Shown piece by piece: positions 4,237 through 38,427 of a DNA stretch of 64,000 nt. The translations under genes and the position numbers were made by a program. The stretch is from an uncultured Nitrospirota bacterium. Lineage in GTDB: Bacteria > CG2-30-53-67. Numbering within the stretch: position 1 is the stretch's first letter; each line of letters opens with the position of its first letter. Location: contig CAMYMF010000010.1 in NCBI GenBank assembly GCA_947259355.1, forward strand, positions 170 to 64,169. Direction: 5' to 3'. Under the pieces are notes generated by a model. That model saw only the letters and a list, made by a program, of their open reading frames with translations. It made no database searches and was not told the DNA's origin.

Positions 4237-4736
4237 CGATTCATCTCCCGGGAGGACACATGGCATGGGGCATCATTTGATGGACTCGCCAGCTTCTTTC
4301 CAAGCATCGAAGAGTGTCGCCCGCCTTTGCCCCCCGCTCCCGTAAAACGCCATCGGTATGATGGGGCACGTCTTCTCCCTCTGCCCAACGGAGCTGCAGT
4401 CATCAATGGCGATATGTGATGTCCCCCGACGCCCTTTCCCCCTTCACGGGAACAGGGTTCGGTGATGGGACGAAGAATACGACCATCTGGATGTTCGGTG
4501 CAGTATCTTCCGACGAGGTCTCCCCCTCTCCCTTCACCTAACCACTGGTTTGCTGTTCTGTCAAGATGGGGCGGCAGAAAGATACCGGATGCCACGCGGG
4601 CGTCCGTGCCCTGTCTGTGTCATTTGCCTCAGACCTTGGCAAGAAAAACGACGGTTTTTTGTCACCCAAAATGTTACGCACGGTTTTCGTTCTCCCATGT
4701 CTTGACGCCCTGCAAACTTGGGTGTATCTTCCGGCC

Positions 4737-5762
4737 ATGAGCGAGAAAGTTACTGCCCATCATTTGATCTTCCTTGTCATGCTTGGTTTCTTATTGCCTT
4801 ACACCTATGGAGGTTGCGTTGCGGCATTCAGCAGTGGCGACGGACATAAGGAGCGCATAGTTAGAGATACCCCTAACGATCATGAGGATGGATTCTCAGG
4901 TGGTTTCATCATTGTTGTCACGGAGGCCTCCGTTGATTCGCAAAATGCTCAAGCCCTTAACGGTCTAACCATCAGAGGCGATACGACCAGTATCGAACCT
5001 GAAGCATCAGCACTAGATCCGAATGCCGTCGACACTCGGATCGCGACGTATCGTCCCTTGGATTTCTCGTTGACTGTGGGGTATTCTTTAGGTCATATAC
5101 GACTCAGTCCGACGTTGTTCGGCGCGAGCCAGGCAGACACGATCCATCAAAGCGGGACTGTCGAGGGCCGTTGCGGAGGCGTCTTTTCGTACAGCTTGAC
5201 TCTGGACAAGGTCTCCAAGGAATTTTCTGGACACCTTACCTTCGAGGATTACTGTGACAAGCAAACGACTCTCTCCGGCGATCTCGATGTTATTGGCACC
5301 TTTGATTCCGATACTGAAGACGTCATAACAGCCACCCTTTCATTCGATAGCCTGCTCGCAGGCTCCTTCATTCTGGCAGGTGAGCTTTCAATCGATTTCT
5401 CAGAGCTTCCCATCCTCGCAGTATTCACCGTCCAGGCGACGGACGCTCTCTCCGGGCAGGTCTACCGCCATGAAGACTACAGCATGAACATCACCGAATC
5501 GATTGACGGTGTCGACATAGATCTCACGGGGACCTTCCACCACCCCGATCATGGATTCGTTGGTTTAGCCACGGCGGATCCACTTGTTATTCATGATGGA
5601 GATCACTGGCCGGCATCGGGCCAAATGGTCATTCAGGGAGCCAACAGCACGGCGGCAGTATTGACGGCCGTCGATCACTTGCAGTGTGGCATTATGGTTG
5701 ACACAACGGGTGATGGATTATTGGACTGGGACTCGGGAGTCCTGAATTGGATTGACTTGTAA
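4737..5762 (+). CDS. hypothetical lipoprotein/secreted protein
   Basis: Signal peptide MSEKVTAHHLIFLVMLGFLLPYTYGGC with a lipobox-like GGC. Acidic, Ser/Thr/Asp-rich body with no recognisable domain. Confidence 0.55.
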   Translation: MSEKVTAHHLIFLVMLGFLLPYTYGGCVAAFSSGDGHKERIVRDTPNDHEDGFSGGFIIVVTEASVDSQNAQALNGLTIRGDTTSIEPEASALDPNAVDTRIATYRPLDFSLTVGYSLGHIRLSPTLFGASQADTIHQSGTVEGRCGGVFSYSLTLDKVSKEFSGHLTFEDYCDKQTTLSGDLDVIGTFDSDTEDVITATLSFDSLLAGSFILAGELSIDFSELPILAVFTVQATDALSGQVYRHEDYSMNITESIDGVDIDLTGTFHHPDHGFVGLATADPLVIHDGDHWPASGQMVIQGANSTAAVLTAVDHLQCGIMVDTTGDGLLDWDSGVLNWIDL

Positions 5763-5987
5763 TGGCGGCCCCAACGCATTCCTTAATTCCTGTTTTCTCG
5801 TTGATATTTGCACGCGTAGGTCGACCACCCGCTCCGCGGGTCGGTCGAGGCCTCCCATAGAGGCTGCGCCTTTAACCGCGCACGCTCCGGAGGACGCGGA
5901 GAAAGGCAATCCCTGTCAAAGATTAAGTAGCTGAGTCAGAACCTCCGTCGATAAAGTGGACACAATCGCCTAACGGAGGATGTGTCC

Positions 5988-6089
5988 ATGCGCAGCAAGA
6001 GCAGAAAGCAGATCGAGACAGGCACGAGGAAGAAACATCGATACAGCAATGCGTTTAAGCTGACGTCGGTGACTGCAGGCGTCCGCTAG
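5988..6089 (+). mobile_element. possible IS3-family OrfA N-terminal remnant (33 codons)
   Basis: MRSKSRKQIETGTRKKHRYSNAFKLTSVTAGVR resembles the R-x-YS-x-x-FK-x-x-V start of IS3 OrfA proteins. It is truncated by a stop and lies in an AT-richer patch. Confidence 0.25.
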
Positions 6090-6215
6090 ATGACACCCAA
6101 ACAGTGTAGGCTTCCTTACTTACCCTTTTAACCTTTTCCGGTGTTTGACTCAGACACCGAATTCGTAGGGTGACTGACCCTGAACTTGACAAAGCAAACG
6201 ATAGGTGATATCTAG

Positions 6216-6707
6216 CAAATAGGAATCATTCCGATTATCGAAGAATATAAGAACCTTCGGGATATTGAACAGACGCTCATCTCGAGTTTACGTGATAAGG
6301 GATAGAGGCCCACCCCTAAACGACTTGAAATTATTCGACTTTTGGCACGGGATATCTCACATCCCGGCGTAAGGGATATTTTACGGAACGTCAGAAAGAT
6401 CGTTCCACGGATAAGCATGTCAACGGTATCTTACACCCTTGACATGATGCAGAGAGAAGGCTTGATATAAGGGCTTGAGTTCTACCACACGGACAAGCGT
6501 TAGGATATGAACCTATCGCATCATATCGACCTCGTCTGCACAACATGCGGGAAGATAACGGATTTTACGAGTGATTTGCCTTCATTATCAAAGGCTGTGG
6601 AAAAGGAAACAGGTATTAAGCTGTCAAGTATGCGGTTTGAATATTACGCCATCTGCAGGACTCGCGCGCGTGTGAAAAAGAAGAGGGGCCCTAAATTCTT
6701 TTGTTAG
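6216..6707 (+). pseudogene. Fur/PerR-family regulator pseudogene (three in-frame stops)
   Basis: A single frame reads ..LRDKG*RPTPKRLEIIRLLA..HPGVRDILRNVRK.VPRISMSTVSYTLDMMQREGLI*GLEF..DKR*DMNLSHHIDLVCTTCGKITDF.. with stops at 6303, 6468 and 6501. No clear start codon, and the C-terminal CxxC is lost. Confidence 0.75.
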
Positions 6708-6911
6708 CTAGTTTCCATCCGAAAATTAAAAGGGACACGAATTAGTTTCCAATTTGGAAACGAGCAATTTTTTCGATGAGCAAGGCCGCACAAGGGTTTA
6801 CGACGAGGCGTACTCATTGTACGTCGAGGAAGTAAGCCCGCGGAGAACGCAGCGCATCGGGTGAAACACTATTATCCACAACAGCACTGTGCCTAAGTTC
6901 AGACAACGTAA

Positions 6912-9119
<2,208 letters not shown>

Positions 9120-9540
9120 TGGCAGCCTAAACGACTTCGAGGGCTTCTGAATTGAAATGCAACGACGCGATGGCTCGCTGACGCTTTATATTTAGCACGG
9201 GGCGGCGGAAGGGGACACGCGCGAAAACGCGATCCCTGCGCCTGTCAGGTCATTCTTCATGGCGGGCCGTCTCTGCGGCCCGGAGGCTTCGCTGATCGAT
9301 GGGTCGTACAAGATTCGCGAATGAAAACGGGTGTTGTGACAGAAACAGGGCGGCAAAAAAGCGGTCAGCTGTGAACCTAAAGGGGACAGGCTGCTTTTCG
9401 TTTTCAGGAGGGTTGAGAATAACAAAATAGCCTGTCCCCTTTGGCGCTTCCTGCAGCTCAGAACGTTTGCCCCCCAGGCGTAGAGGGAACCGGAAAGGAA
9501 GTCGCCATATGTGCCCGCACACAGGATGGAAATCACTTGC

Positions 9541-10194: not shown

Positions 10195-10571
10195 AGGTCC
10201 GGCACCTGTGAGGCTCGTTGGCAAAAAGGAAACAGGCTGCCTGGCAAATGCCATGACATAGCTTACCTTGCCGCTAAAGAGGGTTTGTGCTTAACGCACG
10301 GCAGACTCCGCGAACGTATCCAATATTGCCGAGACGACACTGCAATCCTCTTTGATCCCGGGGGAGGAAAGATCTCGGCCACTCAATTCCGGAGGATTCT
10401 CTCGACGCATGAGGGACTCTCGTTGAGATAGGCATGACCGAAAAGTAGACAGGAGCCGGTAGGTGCGGAGCGTCCCAGGGCAAGAAGCCCTGTGGTTCAC
10501 GAAACGCCTGTTGCTGCGACCTTATTCTCTCCGCGCCCATACCCGCGCTAAGCCTTCGCGGAGAAAGAGCT

Positions 10572-11141
10572 ATGAGCGAGCCGGGACAGACGAAGAAAAG
10601 TGAGCTGAAGGTCTTCATCGCTTCTCGTGAATCCAAATGTGATGACTGTGGTGAGGAATTGGGCCGTCATGCCTGGATCACCCTGCAACAGGAGAAGGGA
10701 GCGGTCTGCCTGACGTGCGCGGACCTTGACCATCTCGTCTATCTTCCGTCGGGCGACGCCGCGCTGACACGACGTGCCAGGAAGAACTCAAGGCTCTCCG
10801 CTCGGCATCGGCCTCACATTCATGCTCTGCCTGTTCAATGGCCTCGTTCTCAACCAGTAGTCCCTGCCGCTCGTAGCGCCTGCGGGCCCGGCTGCCCTTC
10901 GGAGCGCGAGACGATCATCGCGGAGCATGCCTGCCGGAAATACAGTGGCCGCGTCGGCCGAAGCGCTGCCGCCAAGGACCTTGCAGAAAAAGCGGTGCAA
11001 CTCGCAGTCCTTGCGCATATTCGTCATGTGGAGACCCGTTATGATGAGTTTCTCATCAAAAAATGCGATCGACATACTGCACGTGCGCGCGTCAGCGAAG
11101 AAGTGTTTCAAATAGAGGACCCGTGGAGAAAGAAAGCCTGA
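10572..11141 (+). CDS. DUF2293-family protein, central ~30 codons apparently inverted
   Basis: The N-terminal (..CLTCADLDHLVYLPSGDAALTRRARKNSRLSA) and C-terminal (..PGCPSERETIIAEHACRKYSGRVGRSAAAKDL..IRHVETRYDEFL) blocks fit the family. The middle motif RRRYERQGLLVENEAIEQAEHECEADA is only readable on the reverse complement of 10803-10893. Confidence 0.75.
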   Translation: MSEPGQTKKSELKVFIASRESKCDDCGEELGRHAWITLQQEKGAVCLTCADLDHLVYLPSGDAALTRRARKNSRLSARHRPHIHALPVQWPRSQPVVPAARSACGPGCPSERETIIAEHACRKYSGRVGRSAAAKDLAEKAVQLAVLAHIRHVETRYDEFLIKKCDRHTARARVSEEVFQIEDPWRKKA

Positions 11142-11660
11142 TAGAAGCTCCAGGGGCTCTCGCGAGAGTCGGAATCCTCCCGGGGGCTGTCGAGGTTTGG
11201 GCCCGCAATGACAATGCATGCAGTCCGTACAATTTCGATGAAAGAACAACCCGCGCCAACTACCACAAAAACCTCATGGCGCGGTTATCAGCGGCCTTTG
11301 ACATCGATTCAAGCAGGCGCGAGAAGCAGCTGAGCCTCGGCATGAGAATCGCTTCTTTCCCTGGAGCAATTGGGTTGGCGGCCAGTCTGTTCTTTCTGTT
11401 CTTTCTCTTCTTTCAATCCCGGGGAAGGTTTTCGATAAACGCTGAAGCAGCGCTGGCCAATGGCACTCGTCTGGCGCCGTGGATGCTGTCCGTTCCCCCC
11501 ATAAATGACAAATCCAATGAGGAGCTATAGAATATCGAGCAGCGAAAGAAGGATTGTCAAATCTGTCTTAAATCGTTGCCAAGCTCGTAGTCGAAAGCTC
11601 AGCGTGCCAACAAGAAAGCAGAAAAGCCAAAGTCGCTAAAAGTCACAAAGGAGACAACCC

Positions 11661-11993: not shown

Positions 11994-12074
11994 GCCCCGC
12001 ACGTTTGCACCCGACGATAAAGGCCTTCGCTCCTTTCGCGAAACGCAACAACGATGGGGGGGCAGCAAAGGAAA

Positions 12075-12533
12075 ATGCACCATATTTACCGAGGATTCGT
12101 TTGTCTATCGTTCATCGCTGGTTGCAACTCTCAGCCGGAACCAACGTCTGCGGTACGCGGACAGCCACGGTGGACGAATGATCAAGTTATCCAGCGGATC
12201 ATGAACGGCGAACTGGGTGACAACCTGGCCGATCGTGCAAGGAAGACGGACAACTTGTGGATGCGCGAGATAGACCAGAATGTCCTTCCCATGCAGATCT
12301 TCTACTATGCCGACTATCGCGCCGGCATCTCTGTGCTGGTCGAAAACGACAAACCAATTCTCCTTTGTGCCGGATATGGCAGCGGCCCCGTGTCAGGCCT
12401 GACAGTCGTCTCCAGGGGTGGCAAGACGGTTTTGACATATACCTACACCATCGGAAGCGGGGTCCAGCACCTGTATGAAGCGGAGTATGTTCTCGGGTCG
12501 GGAGTCGGCTTTTCAGAGAAGATGACAAACTAA
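12075..12533 (+). CDS. hypothetical lipoprotein
   Basis: Signal MHHIYRGFVCLSFIAGC with lipobox IAGC. No recognisable domain. Start could also be 12054. Confidence 0.6.
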   Translation: MHHIYRGFVCLSFIAGCNSQPEPTSAVRGQPRWTNDQVIQRIMNGELGDNLADRARKTDNLWMREIDQNVLPMQIFYYADYRAGISVLVENDKPILLCAGYGSGPVSGLTVVSRGGKTVLTYTYTIGSGVQHLYEAEYVLGSGVGFSEKMTN

Positions 12534-12823: not shown

Positions 12824-13519
12824 ATGCGAAAAGTGGATCCCCATCCAGATTATCCCCCGGAAGACGGCCAGTATCTGAGAGGCAATGATTTCTCTCCGGT
12901 TGCCGTGGCCATCATCTTGAATTGTGATGCAGACAAAATCCCGCCCGAGCTTGAAAACCTTGTACGGGCTGGGATCGAGACGGGGGCCGCCCTATCAGGA
13001 ACCGTACAAACCGAGAATATTGGATTCGAGAAAATGCTCTGTAACATCGTCTCCAATTCCAATATCCGTTATCTCATCGTAGGCGGCCCCGAATCGCCGG
13101 GCCATTTGACGGGTGAGGCTTTAAAAGCTTTGATTCATAATGGGGTGGACGAGAAGAAGCGTATCGTAGAAACCGACGCGCCCCATCCTTTTCTATTCAA
13201 CGTCTCTATGGAGATGATTGAACGCTTCCGGAAACAGCTCTCGTTGATCGACCTTCAGTTTCAGGGAGACCCCGAATTGATTCGAAAGGCCGTCTGGTGC
13301 TGTTATCAGGAAAGTCCTGTCGCGTTTCGTGGTTATTCGCTGTACGATCCAGGCGCCTACCCAGAGAGCCCTCTCAGCGGCAGGCTGACATGGCGTGTCA
13401 CCCAGCCATGGACTGAAGTGTTGGATGAAAAAGAGCGTGAGGCAAAAGAGAAAGCACTGGCGCTCATAGAGCGCTTAAAGGCAAGAGCCAAGAAAGGCAA
13501 AGAGAACCTGCAAGAGTAG
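12824..13519 (+). CDS. MtrA-like (tetrahydromethanopterin S-methyltransferase subunit A family) corrinoid-binding protein
   Basis: YPPEDGQYLRGNDFSPVAVAIIL..TENIGFEKMLCNIVSNSNIRYLIVGGPESPGHLTGEALKALIHNGVD matches the MtrA core as I recall it, including the His in the GH-TG motif. It has no C-terminal TM helix and carries a Lys/Glu-rich tail instead. Confidence 0.7.
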   Translation: MRKVDPHPDYPPEDGQYLRGNDFSPVAVAIILNCDADKIPPELENLVRAGIETGAALSGTVQTENIGFEKMLCNIVSNSNIRYLIVGGPESPGHLTGEALKALIHNGVDEKKRIVETDAPHPFLFNVSMEMIERFRKQLSLIDLQFQGDPELIRKAVWCCYQESPVAFRGYSLYDPGAYPESPLSGRLTWRVTQPWTEVLDEKEREAKEKALALIERLKARAKKGKENLQE

Positions 13520-17716: not shown

Positions 17717-17961
17717 ACAAAAAAGGGCCGAACCCACCCAAGGTTTTCTCCTTCGGCAGCTCGGCCGTCTTTCCCCCACAAAGACCCGACGCTTTCTGTC
17801 AGCCTGTCACCAGGCGTTTGGCTTTATCGGGAAGTCTGGTTTTCGAGGATTCTATTGTCGATTGAAGATATCCCCTCCCCTCATTTTTTCTACTCAGGCA
17901 CCACTATAGGGACCTGTCAAGTGAACGCGGAGAAAAAATTTGAAATTTATCTGGACATGAA
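17717..17961 (-). promoter_or_regulatory. structured 5' leader with intrinsic terminator (copy A of a paralogous leader pair)
   Basis: Aligns with 36247-36492 over its whole length; the 48-nt core (17749-17796) is 42/48 identical. On the RNA strand, the hairpin GGCCGAGCUGCCGAAGGAGAAAACCUUGGGUGGGUUCGGCC is followed by U6. A conserved TTGACAG block lies at the 5' end. Confidence 0.55.
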
Positions 17962-34189: not shown

Positions 34190-35677
34190 CTAGTCACGAT
34201 GCCGCACGAGGGTGAGTCTGTCCTGAATGCCGAAGGGATCCTTGATTTCCACCTCCCGTTGGAACGTCAGTTTCTTCTTGCCTCGGTCATCGAGGTATTT
34301 GTCCAGCTCCAGATTAACCATGAGGGGCACCGGCTCACCGGCTTGAGTCAGGGCTTGCCGCAACAACCCTTCGGCCTTCGTGGCAAAGGCAATGGCGTCG
34401 CCCAGAATGCGCATGACTTCTGTCGGATTGTGAAAACCGACCGAGTTTTCAGCACCGACGTAGAGGGAGCGGTAGAAAGCCTCTTCATAGTAATCCTTGG
34501 CTTGACCATAAAGTTCTTCGTTCAAGAGCTTTCCTGATCCCTGGGCGGCATGGACTTTCTCAATCAGTTTGGCCGCCGTGGCCGTGGCGTATCCTGCCCG
34601 CAGCATGAGCGAAACCGTCCGGTCTTGAATGGTGGTGACCTGCCCCTTCAGCCATTCGGCGCTCTCCGTATGACACTGCATGCATGCCTTCATGTCATTC
34701 TTCAGTGGGCTCGTCACCCGATGATCGGACACCTTGTGAACACCGACCTTGGTATACGGCATGTGACAGTCTGCGCAGGACGCGCCCGCCTTCCAGTGGA
34801 CGCTCTCCTTGGAGAACAATTCGTACTCGGGATGCCTCATGAAGGCCAGTTTGTACCCGGTGACCTTTTGTTTCCACTCCGCCACGGAGGGGTCGTTTCG
34901 GATCTGCCGAATGATGTTCTCAACGGAGATGTTCTCCCATTGGCTTCCGTGCCACGGAAAGTAAATGCCAACAGATTTCATCTCCTTGCTCTTTTTGATG
35001 TTGTACGTCACATGGCACTGGGCGCAAACGATGCTGCGCATCTCCTGGTTGGAGAGCGTCTCGGGATCTTTGCCCATGGTCTCGAGTGCCTTCACCAGCG
35101 TGAAGCCTCTGGAGATCTTCAAGGACATGTCCTCGTGGTGATGACAGTCCACGCACGCCACCCCCAGTTCCTGATGCTCTTTGGGGATGGCCGCATGCAC
35201 TTCTTTCCAGGGCTTGCTGTAGTAGTCGATCCCCATCTCCTTCTCGAATTTCGGCGCGTAGGGCGTTTTGCACGTCAGACAGACACCGCCGGCCCCGACT
35301 CTGGAGGGGTCGATCTCCAGTTGATCGATGAGCATGTAGGCATGCCCCCTCGGTTCGTTATACTCGACGCCAAAGCCCCATCCGCTGAAGAGCAGCGCCA
35401 TGAAGGGGAACTCCGACAACTTGTCATAGGTGATCCTGTCGGCATCGAAGCCTCGTTTGTATTTGCTTTTTCCTGCAGGCGTGGGCTCCTTGGTCCTCTC
35501 CCACAATTCGTACTCCACAGGATAGGCCTTGCCCCAGGCCGCCGGATCCATTTCGCCCGCAGCGATTTTCACCGGCCGGACCTGCTCACTCTTGGGCGGC
35601 TGGCAGCCAGAAAGCCCAAGGGCTGCCAGGCCCATCACCGTGCACCATACCCAAGTGCATCGACCTGTCCATTTCAT
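34190..35677 (-). CDS. nrfA: ammonia-forming cytochrome c nitrite reductase, pentahaem subunit
   Basis: CLTCK (CxxCK haem 1) plus four CxxCH motifs (CVDCH, CAQCH, CADCH, CMQCH). Lipoprotein-type signal LSGC. GGAGG SD before the ATG at 35677. Confidence 0.93.
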   Translation of the reverse strand: MKWTGRCTWVWCTVMGLAALGLSGCQPPKSEQVRPVKIAAGEMDPAAWGKAYPVEYELWERTKEPTPAGKSKYKRGFDADRITYDKLSEFPFMALLFSGWGFGVEYNEPRGHAYMLIDQLEIDPSRVGAGGVCLTCKTPYAPKFEKEMGIDYYSKPWKEVHAAIPKEHQELGVACVDCHHHEDMSLKISRGFTLVKALETMGKDPETLSNQEMRSIVCAQCHVTYNIKKSKEMKSVGIYFPWHGSQWENISVENIIRQIRNDPSVAEWKQKVTGYKLAFMRHPEYELFSKESVHWKAGASCADCHMPYTKVGVHKVSDHRVTSPLKNDMKACMQCHTESAEWLKGQVTTIQDRTVSLMLRAGYATATAAKLIEKVHAAQGSGKLLNEELYGQAKDYYEEAFYRSLYVGAENSVGFHNPTEVMRILGDAIAFATKAEGLLRQALTQAGEPVPLMVNLELDKYLDDRGKKKLTFQREVEIKDPFGIQDRLTLVRHRD

Positions 35678-35693
35678 CGCAGACCTCCTCTCA

Positions 35694-36155
35694 TCACAGG
35701 GTTTCGATGGCACCACTGCGCTGATGGGATACCCGTCTGTGACAGCTCCAGCATTTCCTTTCGGTGTCCATCAGCGACACGGTGGTGGCGTGGCATCGGA
35801 CACAGTTTCTCTGCAGGACCTTTTCCCCGTGAGCAGTCAATTCAATCCGCTCGGGAACCATGCCGGAGTAAAAGAAGAACACATCCTTCAACCCGTCAAT
35901 TGCCTTCCACACATAGTGGGCGCTCACCGTCTCGTTGGGGAGATGGCAGTCGACACACTGTTTCCGCCGGTGCGCTCCGGTATGGCTCCAGGCTTCGTAC
36001 TCGGCCTCCATAACATGGCAGCTGACACAAAAGTCCGCCTGATCCGATTTCGCGAGCAGCTTGGGTGGACCGAGTAGGAAGAACAGGGAAACAACCAGCA
36101 GAGCGACCGTGATACCAAGGTAAAGACCTGCCTTTTTCCGTCCCGACTTGCCCAT
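35694..36155 (-). CDS. nrfH: NrfH, NapC/NirT-family tetrahaem membrane cytochrome
   Basis: N-terminal TM helix and four CxxCH motifs (CVSCH, CVDCH, CVRCH, CWSCH), immediately upstream of nrfA. Start could also be 36197. Confidence 0.9.
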   Translation of the reverse strand: MGKSGRKKAGLYLGITVALLVVSLFFLLGPPKLLAKSDQADFCVSCHVMEAEYEAWSHTGAHRRKQCVDCHLPNETVSAHYVWKAIDGLKDVFFFYSGMVPERIELTAHGEKVLQRNCVRCHATTVSLMDTERKCWSCHRRVSHQRSGAIETL

Positions 36156-36246: not shown

Positions 36247-36492
36247 AACAAAAATGCCGGACGCCGAAGTTTCATCCTTCGGCAGCCCGGCCATCTTTCC
36301 CCCACCAAGACCCGTGACTTTCCGCCCCCCCCTCACGAAGGGTTGAGCTTTCTCGGGAAGCCCCTTGTCCTTAATGGTTTTCCTTTGTTGAGTATAGCGG
36401 CAGCGGCCCCTCCCTCAGCTTCTATGATTCACCAGGTTGAGCATCTGTCAAGTCGGTGAGAAAAGAATTTGCTGTCCGTCGAAACGCATGAA
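36247..36492 (-). promoter_or_regulatory. structured 5' leader with intrinsic terminator (copy B of the paralogous leader pair)
   Basis: Aligns with 17717-17961; the 48-nt core is at 36275-36322. On the RNA strand, the hairpin GCCGGGCUGCCGAAGGAUGAAACUUCGGCGUCCGGC is followed by AUUUUUGUU, 92 nt before the nrfH ATG. Confidence 0.55.
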
Positions 36493-37339: not shown

Positions 37340-37623
37340 TCCCATCGGCGCGACACAGCCCAAAACATCGCCCCCCGGGCCGCATTCTCCGCTGACACGC
37401 GAAGTCTGTTTGCCCATCTACAAGATCCCCTTATCCATACACCATGAGGGGCAAATCTAAGGGACGAACGGCCCCCGGGCTGAATCACCAGGTTTCCCGC
37501 GATTGTCTGCGCCCCATTTCCTTCGCCGATTACCGAAAACCTCTGAGCAATCTTTTTTGGAACCTTTTGCGGCCTCTGGTGTCTCATAGACCAGAAACCT
37601 ATTTGAACGAAAGGAGAAAGGCC

Positions 37624-38427
37624 ATGTTGAAAGGAACAATTGCCGTACTCATCGCTTGTCTGCTTCTGGGAGCCACCACGCCGTCCACGTCTGCCCGGGA
37701 GGAGATGGGTGTAGACATCGAGATCCTATCGGACCGTGGGAATCAGTTCTATACGATCCCCTACAAGCAATACGTGGCGGGAAAAACGGAGGTCATCAAA
37801 CGGTATCTTGAAGCCCGACGGGGGAAGAATTACAGGGTAGCCATCACCAACAACACACCCCATCGAATCGGTGTGGTCATTGCGGTAGACGGGCGGAATA
37901 TCATATCAGGCAAGCGGTCTGATCTGAGGCATCATGAATCGATGTACATTCTCAGCCCCCATGAGCGCGCGACCTATGGCGGATGGCGGACGGACAAGAA
38001 TACGGTGCACCGGTTCTATTTTACGAATCCGGCCGATGCCTATGCCGTCCGAACATTCGGCGACACCTCGGCCATGGGGGTGATCGCGGTGACCGTCTTT
38101 GAGGAGAAACCGAAGCCTCGACGATGGCGCAAACAAGAGCGGGGCCCAGGGAAACCTTCTGCAGAAGCCGCGCCGGAGGCGCTGGGTGAAGACCGTGCGG
38201 GCACCGGTTTTGGGGAGGGTGAACACTCGCCGTCCGTGGCGGTGTCCTTCAGGCCGAAGCGAACACCCTTCAAGAAGATCCTCCTCAAATACGAATGGCG
38301 AAACCGTCTCTGTGAAATGGGACTTATGCGCTGCAAGGAGGATGGCAACCGCCTCTGGGACGAAGAGGACCGCTTTGCGCCCCCTCCGCCCGATCAGCAC
38401 GGACGGGTGTATCCGGAATATGACTAA
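37624..38427 (+). CDS. hypothetical secreted protein
   Basis: AAAGGAGAAAGG SD, signal peptide MLKGTIAVLIACLLLGATTPSTSA, and a Pro/Arg/Lys-rich linker. No recognised domain. Confidence 0.6.
   Translation: MLKGTIAVLIACLLLGATTPSTSAREEMGVDIEILSDRGNQFYTIPYKQYVAGKTEVIKRYLEARRGKNYRVAITNNTPHRIGVVIAVDGRNIISGKRSDLRHHESMYILSPHERATYGGWRTDKNTVHRFYFTNPADAYAVRTFGDTSAMGVIAVTVFEEKPKPRRWRKQERGPGKPSAEAAPEALGEDRAGTGFGEGEHSPSVAVSFRPKRTPFKKILLKYEWRNRLCEMGLMRCKEDGNRLWDEEDRFAPPPPDQHGRVYPEYD

Follow-up and report, generated by a model that had tools for sequence, protein, structure and literature searches.

The question raised by this locus is whether a DUF2293 gene has had a central segment turned onto the opposite strand and, if so, whether what is seen is one position of a genetic switch, the relic of a single mutation or a fault of assembly. 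The gene lies in a stretch of 64,000 nucleotides, referred to throughout as the window, and an earlier note on it had offered all three readings, having observed that the forward reading frame stays open across a block of residues that looks unrelated to the family, while the family's central motif appeared to be encoded on the other strand. The best reading of the evidence set out below is that the rearrangement is a one-off mutation scar in the lineage of a sediment bacterium, and that it is no genetic switch. The reading frame, which does prove to be open, is the following:

10572 to 11141, plus strand: the rearranged DUF2293 open reading frame, 189 aa, open, against a canonical family length of about 229 aa

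The Pfam model of the family, PF10056 (DUF2293), matches this ORF with 81 bits against a cut-off of 25 (residues 106-186, profile positions 7-85 of 85); PF10056 describes only the C-terminal 85 positions of these proteins, however, and the match falls downstream of the inverted segment. A search for homologues with the window's protein found 7,888 sequences, and the best 120 of these 7,888 are 220-281 aa long, typically about 229 aa, the length of 189 aa being unique among them to the window's protein. By canonical architecture we mean that of the bacterial DUF2293 proteins of about 229 aa (invariant residues are numbered here as in the homologue P0002), which comprises a Zn-ribbon-like N-terminus, an RYERQG hairpin, a long helix and a C-terminal bundle. 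The window's protein does not show this full set. In common with other DUF2293 (PF10056) proteins it has the N-terminal CxxC...CxxC region and the C-terminal helical domain, both intact and well above the Pfam threshold, but unlike them it has the central 73 residues of the architecture missing or scrambled. A literature search on DUF2293 returned no papers, and a Foldseek comparison of the predicted structure of a canonical homologue with the PDB gave no neighbour at E <= 0.001; as to what DUF2293 does, nothing new is learned from the rearranged gene. The 3' end of the gene is overlapped by 79 nt by a further ORF (11063-11530, plus strand, 155 aa) that has no Pfam family at E <= 0.001 and may perhaps be no real gene.

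Read as its reverse complement, 10794-10893 is SRARRRYERQGLLVENEAIEQAEHECEADAERR, the beta-hairpin/helix motif of the DUF2293 family. The translation that had been given for the reverse complement of 10803-10893, SRARRRYERQGLLVENEAIEQAEHECEADA, was reproduced exactly; when aligned with sets of 11 and of 46 homologues, the antisense peptide follows the family consensus SxARKRYERQGLLVExEALExAExECxADA, and it keeps every one of the 12 invariant residues (R97, Y100, E101, R102, Q103, G104, L106, E108, E116, C119, D122 and R126 in P0002). On the plus strand the segment (called M below) is read as (L)SARHRPHIHALPVQWPRSQPVVPAARSACGPG, and the forward reading RHRPHIHALPVQWPRSQPVVPAARSACGPG, which begins RHRPHIHALPVQW, matches nothing in either alignment. 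Scores from a full-length family HMM, built from the 46 homologues, were as follows:

Antisense peptide alone: 50.0 bits, E 8e-17, HMM positions 83-115
As-given middle alone: -2.5 bits, no real HMM match
Whole protein as given: 263.7 bits, HMM positions 1-77 and 146-228
Whole protein flipped in place: 296-304 bits, HMM positions 1-112/115 and 148/149-228
Pseudo-ancestor with the missing pieces restored: 413.7 bits, HMM positions 1-228, one domain

Judged by these scores and by the conserved residues, the antisense family match is confirmed as real and lies far beyond chance, so that both of the observations from which the question arose, that the forward residues are unrelated to the family and that the opposite strand carries its central motif, are borne out. 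A full-length HMM was used in place of the Pfam comparison that the earlier note had proposed because PF10056 does not cover the segment and hence cannot address it; the Pfam scores themselves (81 bits as given, 72 bits flipped) are uninformative on the point, the lower value arising because the flip boundaries chosen, 10800-10905, destroyed the residues 'CPS'. It had further been claimed that flipping the segment in place keeps the reading frame, and this is true as far as it goes, in that the flipped frame is open and the motif and a higher score are restored, but 40 conserved residues are still missing. Similarly, the inversion that had been placed at 10803-10893 is real, while its limits are better given as 10796-10893, or as 10794-10893 if an overlap of 2 nt is counted.

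To describe the rearrangement it is necessary to have an ancestral sequence for comparison, and here this was provided by a relative about 93% identical, present in two other metagenomes, together with L161, a Logan contig that carries the DNA of the closest full-length homologue, P0002. On this basis an ancestral 217 nt (22 + 100 + 95) has been replaced by the reverse complement of its inner 100 nt. The ancestral order is L (to 10795), d1 (22 nt), M (100 nt), d2 (95 nt) and R (from TGCCCT), and the order in the window is L, the reverse complement of M, and R:

10572 to 10795, plus strand: left colinear part L, the N-terminal CxxC...CxxC region up to ...RKNSRL
10794 to 10795, no strand: junction 1 (10795/10796), a 2-nt overlap 'CT' that fits both L and the inverted piece
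10796 to 10893, minus strand: inverted segment M, whose minus strand is SRARRRYERQGLLVENEAIEQAEHECEADAERR and which in contigs of runs X2 and X4 has the opposite orientation relative to L
10893 to 10894, no strand: junction 2 (10893/10894), overlap of at least 1 nt (T), with loose ends before 10794 in X2 and X4
10894 to 11141, plus strand: right colinear part R, (C)PSERETIIAEHACRKYSGRVGRSAAAK... to the stop, the C-terminal helical DUF2293 domain

Alignment of the window with L161 by blastn breaks into three pieces, the middle one on the other strand:

Window 10596-10801 with L161 843-1048, plus, 81.6%
Window 10794-10900 with L161 1164-1058, minus, 75.7%
Window 10905-11135 with L161 1272-1502, plus, 77.5%

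Altogether 117 nt of ancestral sequence (22 + 95) have gone, and the gene as a whole is shorter by 120 nt (40 codons). In family terms the missing codons are, for the left 22 nt, part of S-A plus VVLKW and, for the right 95 nt, E-IRRAQAxLRRxELDxxYIxRFAxRVRELYPx.

The closer relative is represented by short Logan contigs in X2 and X4, whose identity to the window is about 93% over the segment and 97% over the left flank. One contig from X2 carries the reverse complement of 10736-10795 (with 2 differences from the window over this part of L) and then, 22 nt further on, 10794-10893 on the other strand; its placement on the window accordingly gives an 'opposite strands' joint from 10795 to 10893 and a loose end behind 10795. 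The letters that flank the matched pieces in the relative, taken from such loose ends, run ...AGGCT, TTCAGCGGTGGTGTTGAAATGG, AGCCGGGCGCGG...GCCGAGCGGAGAG, AAATCCGTCGCGCCCAAGCGGCCCTTCGGC..., where TTCAGCGGTGGTGTTGAAATGG is the 22 nt lost at junction 1 and AAATCCGTCGCGCCCAAGCGGCCCTTCGGC begins the relative's copy of the roughly 95 nt lost at junction 2 (the length of 95 nt for d2 was counted on L161, positions 1165-1259). The relative thus encodes ...R-L-S-A-V-V-L-K-W-S-R-A-R...A-D-A-E-R-R-E-I-R-R-A-Q-A-A-L-R, and a pseudo-ancestor put together from the relatives' pieces is in frame, with 690 nt against the 570 nt of the window's gene.

The position of the left breakpoint can be read from three codons. 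L-S-A is spelt CTT TCA GCN in the relative and in L161 and CTC TCC GCT in the window; reverse-complementing the relative's AGCGGAGAG, the codons (E-R-R) that follow ADA, gives exactly this CTC TCC GCT. The window's L-S-A codons therefore come from the inverted piece, which places the breakpoint at 10795/10796. It is because L-S-A happens to be encoded by coincidence that the protein alignment seems colinear for 7 nt past the true breakpoint (10794-10802). A microhomology of 9 nt at this junction was considered and rejected, the relative's L-side CTTTCAGCG sharing only 2 nt exactly. At junction 2, where d2 and the sequence upstream of R were deduced from relatives at 76-93% identity, the microhomology is anything from 1 to about 8 nt. 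With the help of the close relative, both breakpoints appear to be resolved to within 1-2 nt.

That the window's arrangement is the derived one is shown by the consistency with which other genes have the canonical order. A canonical query is colinear over approximately residues 1-226 in all 80 of 80 loci from GTDB species genomes (from many phyla) and in all 80 of 80 JGI metagenome loci; the best matches in these two sets have only 60-74% amino acid identity, which suffices to show colinearity but makes them unsuited to reconstructing the ancestor. The check on orthologues that had been recommended thus found none sharing the present orientation, all 160 fetched loci being canonical, as are the relative in X2 and X4 and L161, and the rearrangement is confined to one lineage. 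Contigs from the relatives match the intergenic DNA upstream of the gene as well (10357-10427 and 10466-10770), so that these are orthologous loci. The event seems also to be a recent one, because the strand of M that is now untranslated still encodes a perfect family motif (12 of 12 invariant residues, no stop) and most of its differences from the relative are synonymous: of the six that could be placed (codon positions being assigned by hand), four (10828, 10857, 10882 and 10885) leave the residue encoded in the old sense frame unchanged, and the other two, at 10824 and 10839, replace H by N at a variable position and I by L.

We consider it likely that this is a real, lineage-specific and non-reversible inversion-deletion for which the simplest route would be one template switch, out and back. 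The suggestion of a fixed micro-inversion is supported, then, as regards the inversion and its being fixed, but this was no clean flip, since there are two flanking deletions of 22 and 95 nt. In the proposed event the nascent strand would leave its template at 10795, pair again, through 2 nt (CT), with the far end of M on the opposite strand, copy M backwards from there and finally rejoin its first template at the TGC codon of ...CPSERE. Such a replication-based origin is something that we infer from the form of the product. The same real, fixed event could instead have come about by breakage, with two double-strand breaks, resection of 22 and 95 nt and inverted re-ligation by NHEJ or alternative end-joining; sequence has indeed been lost on both sides of the inverted piece, and the junction overlaps, which are 2 nt long at one side and at least 1 nt at the other, fit both routes and are typical of end-joining. 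The template switch is favoured because it needs a single event, against the several steps of breaking the DNA twice, resecting both flanks and re-capturing a free fragment of 100 nt, and no Ku or LigD was seen among the 20 large ORFs scanned in the window. On balance end-joining is an unlikely route, although of the alternatives it is the one to be taken most seriously.

If a template switch was responsible, it would belong to a type already described. The four-point model of PMC5453318 has a type '1-3-2-4', in which a fragment is inverted and no repeat is created, and the window has exactly this form, being F1, the reverse complement of the ancestral 2->3 fragment and F3, with the points in the order 1<3<2<4; 100 nt would have been copied and 117 nt skipped (22 between points 1 and 3, 95 between points 2 and 4). 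In common with the cases in that paper, the window shows a flank, an inverted internal fragment and a second flank, with no new repeat, in one lineage, and a single event that appears in a linear alignment as a block of unrelated sequence. In contrast to those cases, the event here is bacterial and inside a coding gene, and its replicative origin is a proposed one; many of the human-chimp template-switch cases that the paper describes are clusters of mutations of a few bases. A second point of comparison is the template switching of bacterial quasi-palindromes, in which an imperfect inverted repeat is the place where strands are switched (Ripley 1982; Dutra and Lovett 2006, both as cited in PMC5453318), the classical events correcting the repeat to a perfect palindrome over a few bases. 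There is some likeness to this, as CTTTCAGCG and AGCGGAGAG in the relative form an inverted match at 6 of 9 positions, and the left copy in the window is now the perfect complement of the right one. Unlike such events, however, the window's inverts the whole spacer-side fragment and deletes the flanks, and the exact overlap is only 2 nt.

A quite different possibility is that the organism has the canonical gene, and that the rearrangement arose in the library or the assembly, as a chimera of whole-genome amplification or PCR or as a mis-join. An inverted piece with deletions and short overlaps does resemble the chimeras of multiple displacement amplification, of which inverted joins, intervening deletions and short junction overlaps are reportedly a classic product. 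Evidence on this point comes from run X1, which contains the same strain (word depth about 3, word share 0.27-0.29): a k-mer contig of 252 nt, separately built by Logan and with a mean word depth of 2.9, agrees with window 10679-10930 at every position (0 differences), both junctions included. The depth in X1 is only about 3x, a point that an advocate of an artefact could use; against this, the assembled contigs of the run show the as-given orientation only, with no contig, joint or loose end that leads to the canonical L-d1 junction for this strain, an artefact would need two template jumps within 100 nt carried by several reads, and a repeat search found no inverted repeat of anything like k-mer length by which a de Bruijn graph assembler might be misled. 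An artefact of this kind is accordingly very improbable.

There remains the reading that a site-specific recombinase flips the segment to and fro, making a reversible intragenic inverton with two protein isoforms. In its favour, the ORF is open as given and is also open, with the motif restored, when 10803-10893 or 10794-10893 is flipped, and recoding intragenic invertons are known to exist (bioRxiv 10.1101/2023.03.11.532203). These depend on an inverted-repeat pair that an invertase recognises and undergo a conservative flip (ibid.), and the locus differs from them in several respects. The weak imperfect inverted repeats in which the earlier note had placed the junctions (10796-10813 and 10885-10904) turn out to be at chance level: their local score of 7 compares with a background of 4.64 +/- 1.16 and is equalled by 6.2% of random window pairs of the same spacing (p about 0.06), and a repeat search did not report the pair even at seed 6, while giving 14 other pairs of similar quality within the same 500 nt. 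They were therefore rejected as recombination sites, and the junction overlaps are of only 2 nt and 1 nt. Nor is the inversion conservative: 117 nt are missing relative to every relative, so that a family-like protein results from neither orientation. After a flip in place the protein would score 296-304 bits, compared with 413.7 bits for the pseudo-ancestor, and would still be without HMM positions of about 78-82 and 113-148 and without 40 conserved residues, among them the invariant R136, D141 and F148. The relatives have the canonical, undeleted form and never the in-place flip, X1 shows a single orientation (in assembled contigs at about 3x, where a minority orientation or a polymorphism could go unseen), and a Pfam scan of the 20 large ORFs of the window found no invertase or site-specific recombinase. 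Compared with the recoding intragenic invertons of Chanin et al. ('Intragenic DNA inversions expand bacterial coding capacity'), then, the locus is similar in that its inversion is wholly intragenic, leaves the ORF open and recodes about 33 residues, but it has no inverted-repeat pair and gives no sign of a second orientation, no invertase was seen among the large ORFs scanned nearby, and it has lost sequence at both junctions, so that no flip could undo the change. The probability that this is a switch is, in our estimation, close to negligible.

The ORFs scanned are metabolic genes, including katG, a MOSC/YiiM protein, a muconolactone-isomerase-like protein, an MtrA-like protein, an enoyl-CoA hydratase, binding proteins, NrfA and a molybdopterin oxidoreductase, and some of these deserve remark in their own right. 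The katG ORF (6924-9119) together with its upstream sequence (6740-9340) has k-mers in common with about 20 unrelated metagenomes from sediment, mangrove, marine and freshwater sources (2015-2025). In each of the four of these that were compared in detail, runs X7, X12, X13 and X16, there are short Logan contigs by the thousand with 90-99% identity to katG (5,300-8,900 pieces per run, with a summed depth in the thousands), the sequence flanking katG being essentially absent from them, and many of the runs with a word share of 0.08 match the window only at katG; this suggests a hyper-abundant, micro-diverse or horizontally spread family of alleles. Two c-di-GMP-I riboswitch aptamers lie on the minus strand, at 17752-17832 (49.1 bits) and 36277-36357 (60.1 bits), both above the Rfam gathering thresholds, and the second is just upstream of a gene for an NrfA-like cytochrome c552 (34190-35716, minus strand); if the two are linked, nitrite ammonification would be under c-di-GMP control. 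The MtrA-like protein (12824-13519, plus strand; tetrahydromethanopterin S-methyltransferase subunit A family, 130.7 bits) adjoins the muconolactone-isomerase-like ORF and the enoyl-CoA hydratase in a chromosome that is otherwise like that of a bacterial anaerobe. No Pfam family was found at E <= 0.001 for the plus-strand ORFs 4566-5762 (398 aa), 12054-12533 (159 aa) and 37444-38427 (327 aa).

As for what the inversion-deletion has done to the DUF2293 protein, 73 conserved residues have been replaced by 33 unrelated residues rich in Pro and Arg, and the stretch scrambled or deleted (d1, M and d2) holds 16 of the 61 columns that are invariant in the family. In an AF2 model of a canonical homologue (mean pLDDT 69, the N-terminal half being of low confidence and the C-terminal half, including the R region, above 90) the lost stretch is predicted to be a beta-hairpin, with strands at 88-94 and 99-105, followed by a helix of 47 residues (109-155), of which the part encoded by d2, with block-mean pLDDT of 84-97, leads into the C-terminal bundle. 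It is because 16 invariant columns and the hairpin and long helix are affected that a loss of function seems likely, and the rearranged protein is probably crippled or inactive, even though its ORF is open and in frame. M has three antisense frames, of which only one is open, and R stays in frame after one in three changes of length; the chance of an intact ORF would accordingly have been about 1/9, which is a mild hint that the shortened protein has been tolerated or selected. It is improbable that the frame has been kept because the shortened protein works, with the Zn-ribbon-like N-terminus, the Pro/Arg-rich linker of 33 residues and the DUF2293 bundle functioning together; were it so, the gene would be a natural deletion experiment, in which the RYERQG hairpin and the long helix would be dispensable or would have a separable function.

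The mutation itself is of an ordinary kind, and the case is a new instance of something already known, albeit a clean bacterial one of the '1-3-2-4', inversion-only class that resembles template switching. It is of some practical consequence that a gene caller and Pfam both accept the ORF as an ordinary DUF2293 gene although a third of the protein is scrambled, and that in-frame micro-inversions of this kind escape both routine annotation and linear alignment. Equally, an inversion within a gene may leave the frame intact without being an inverton, and before one is called the inverted repeats, the conservation of sequence at the junctions and heterogeneity at the level of reads should all be checked. 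The main value of the DUF2293 case is thus as a worked example and as a caution.
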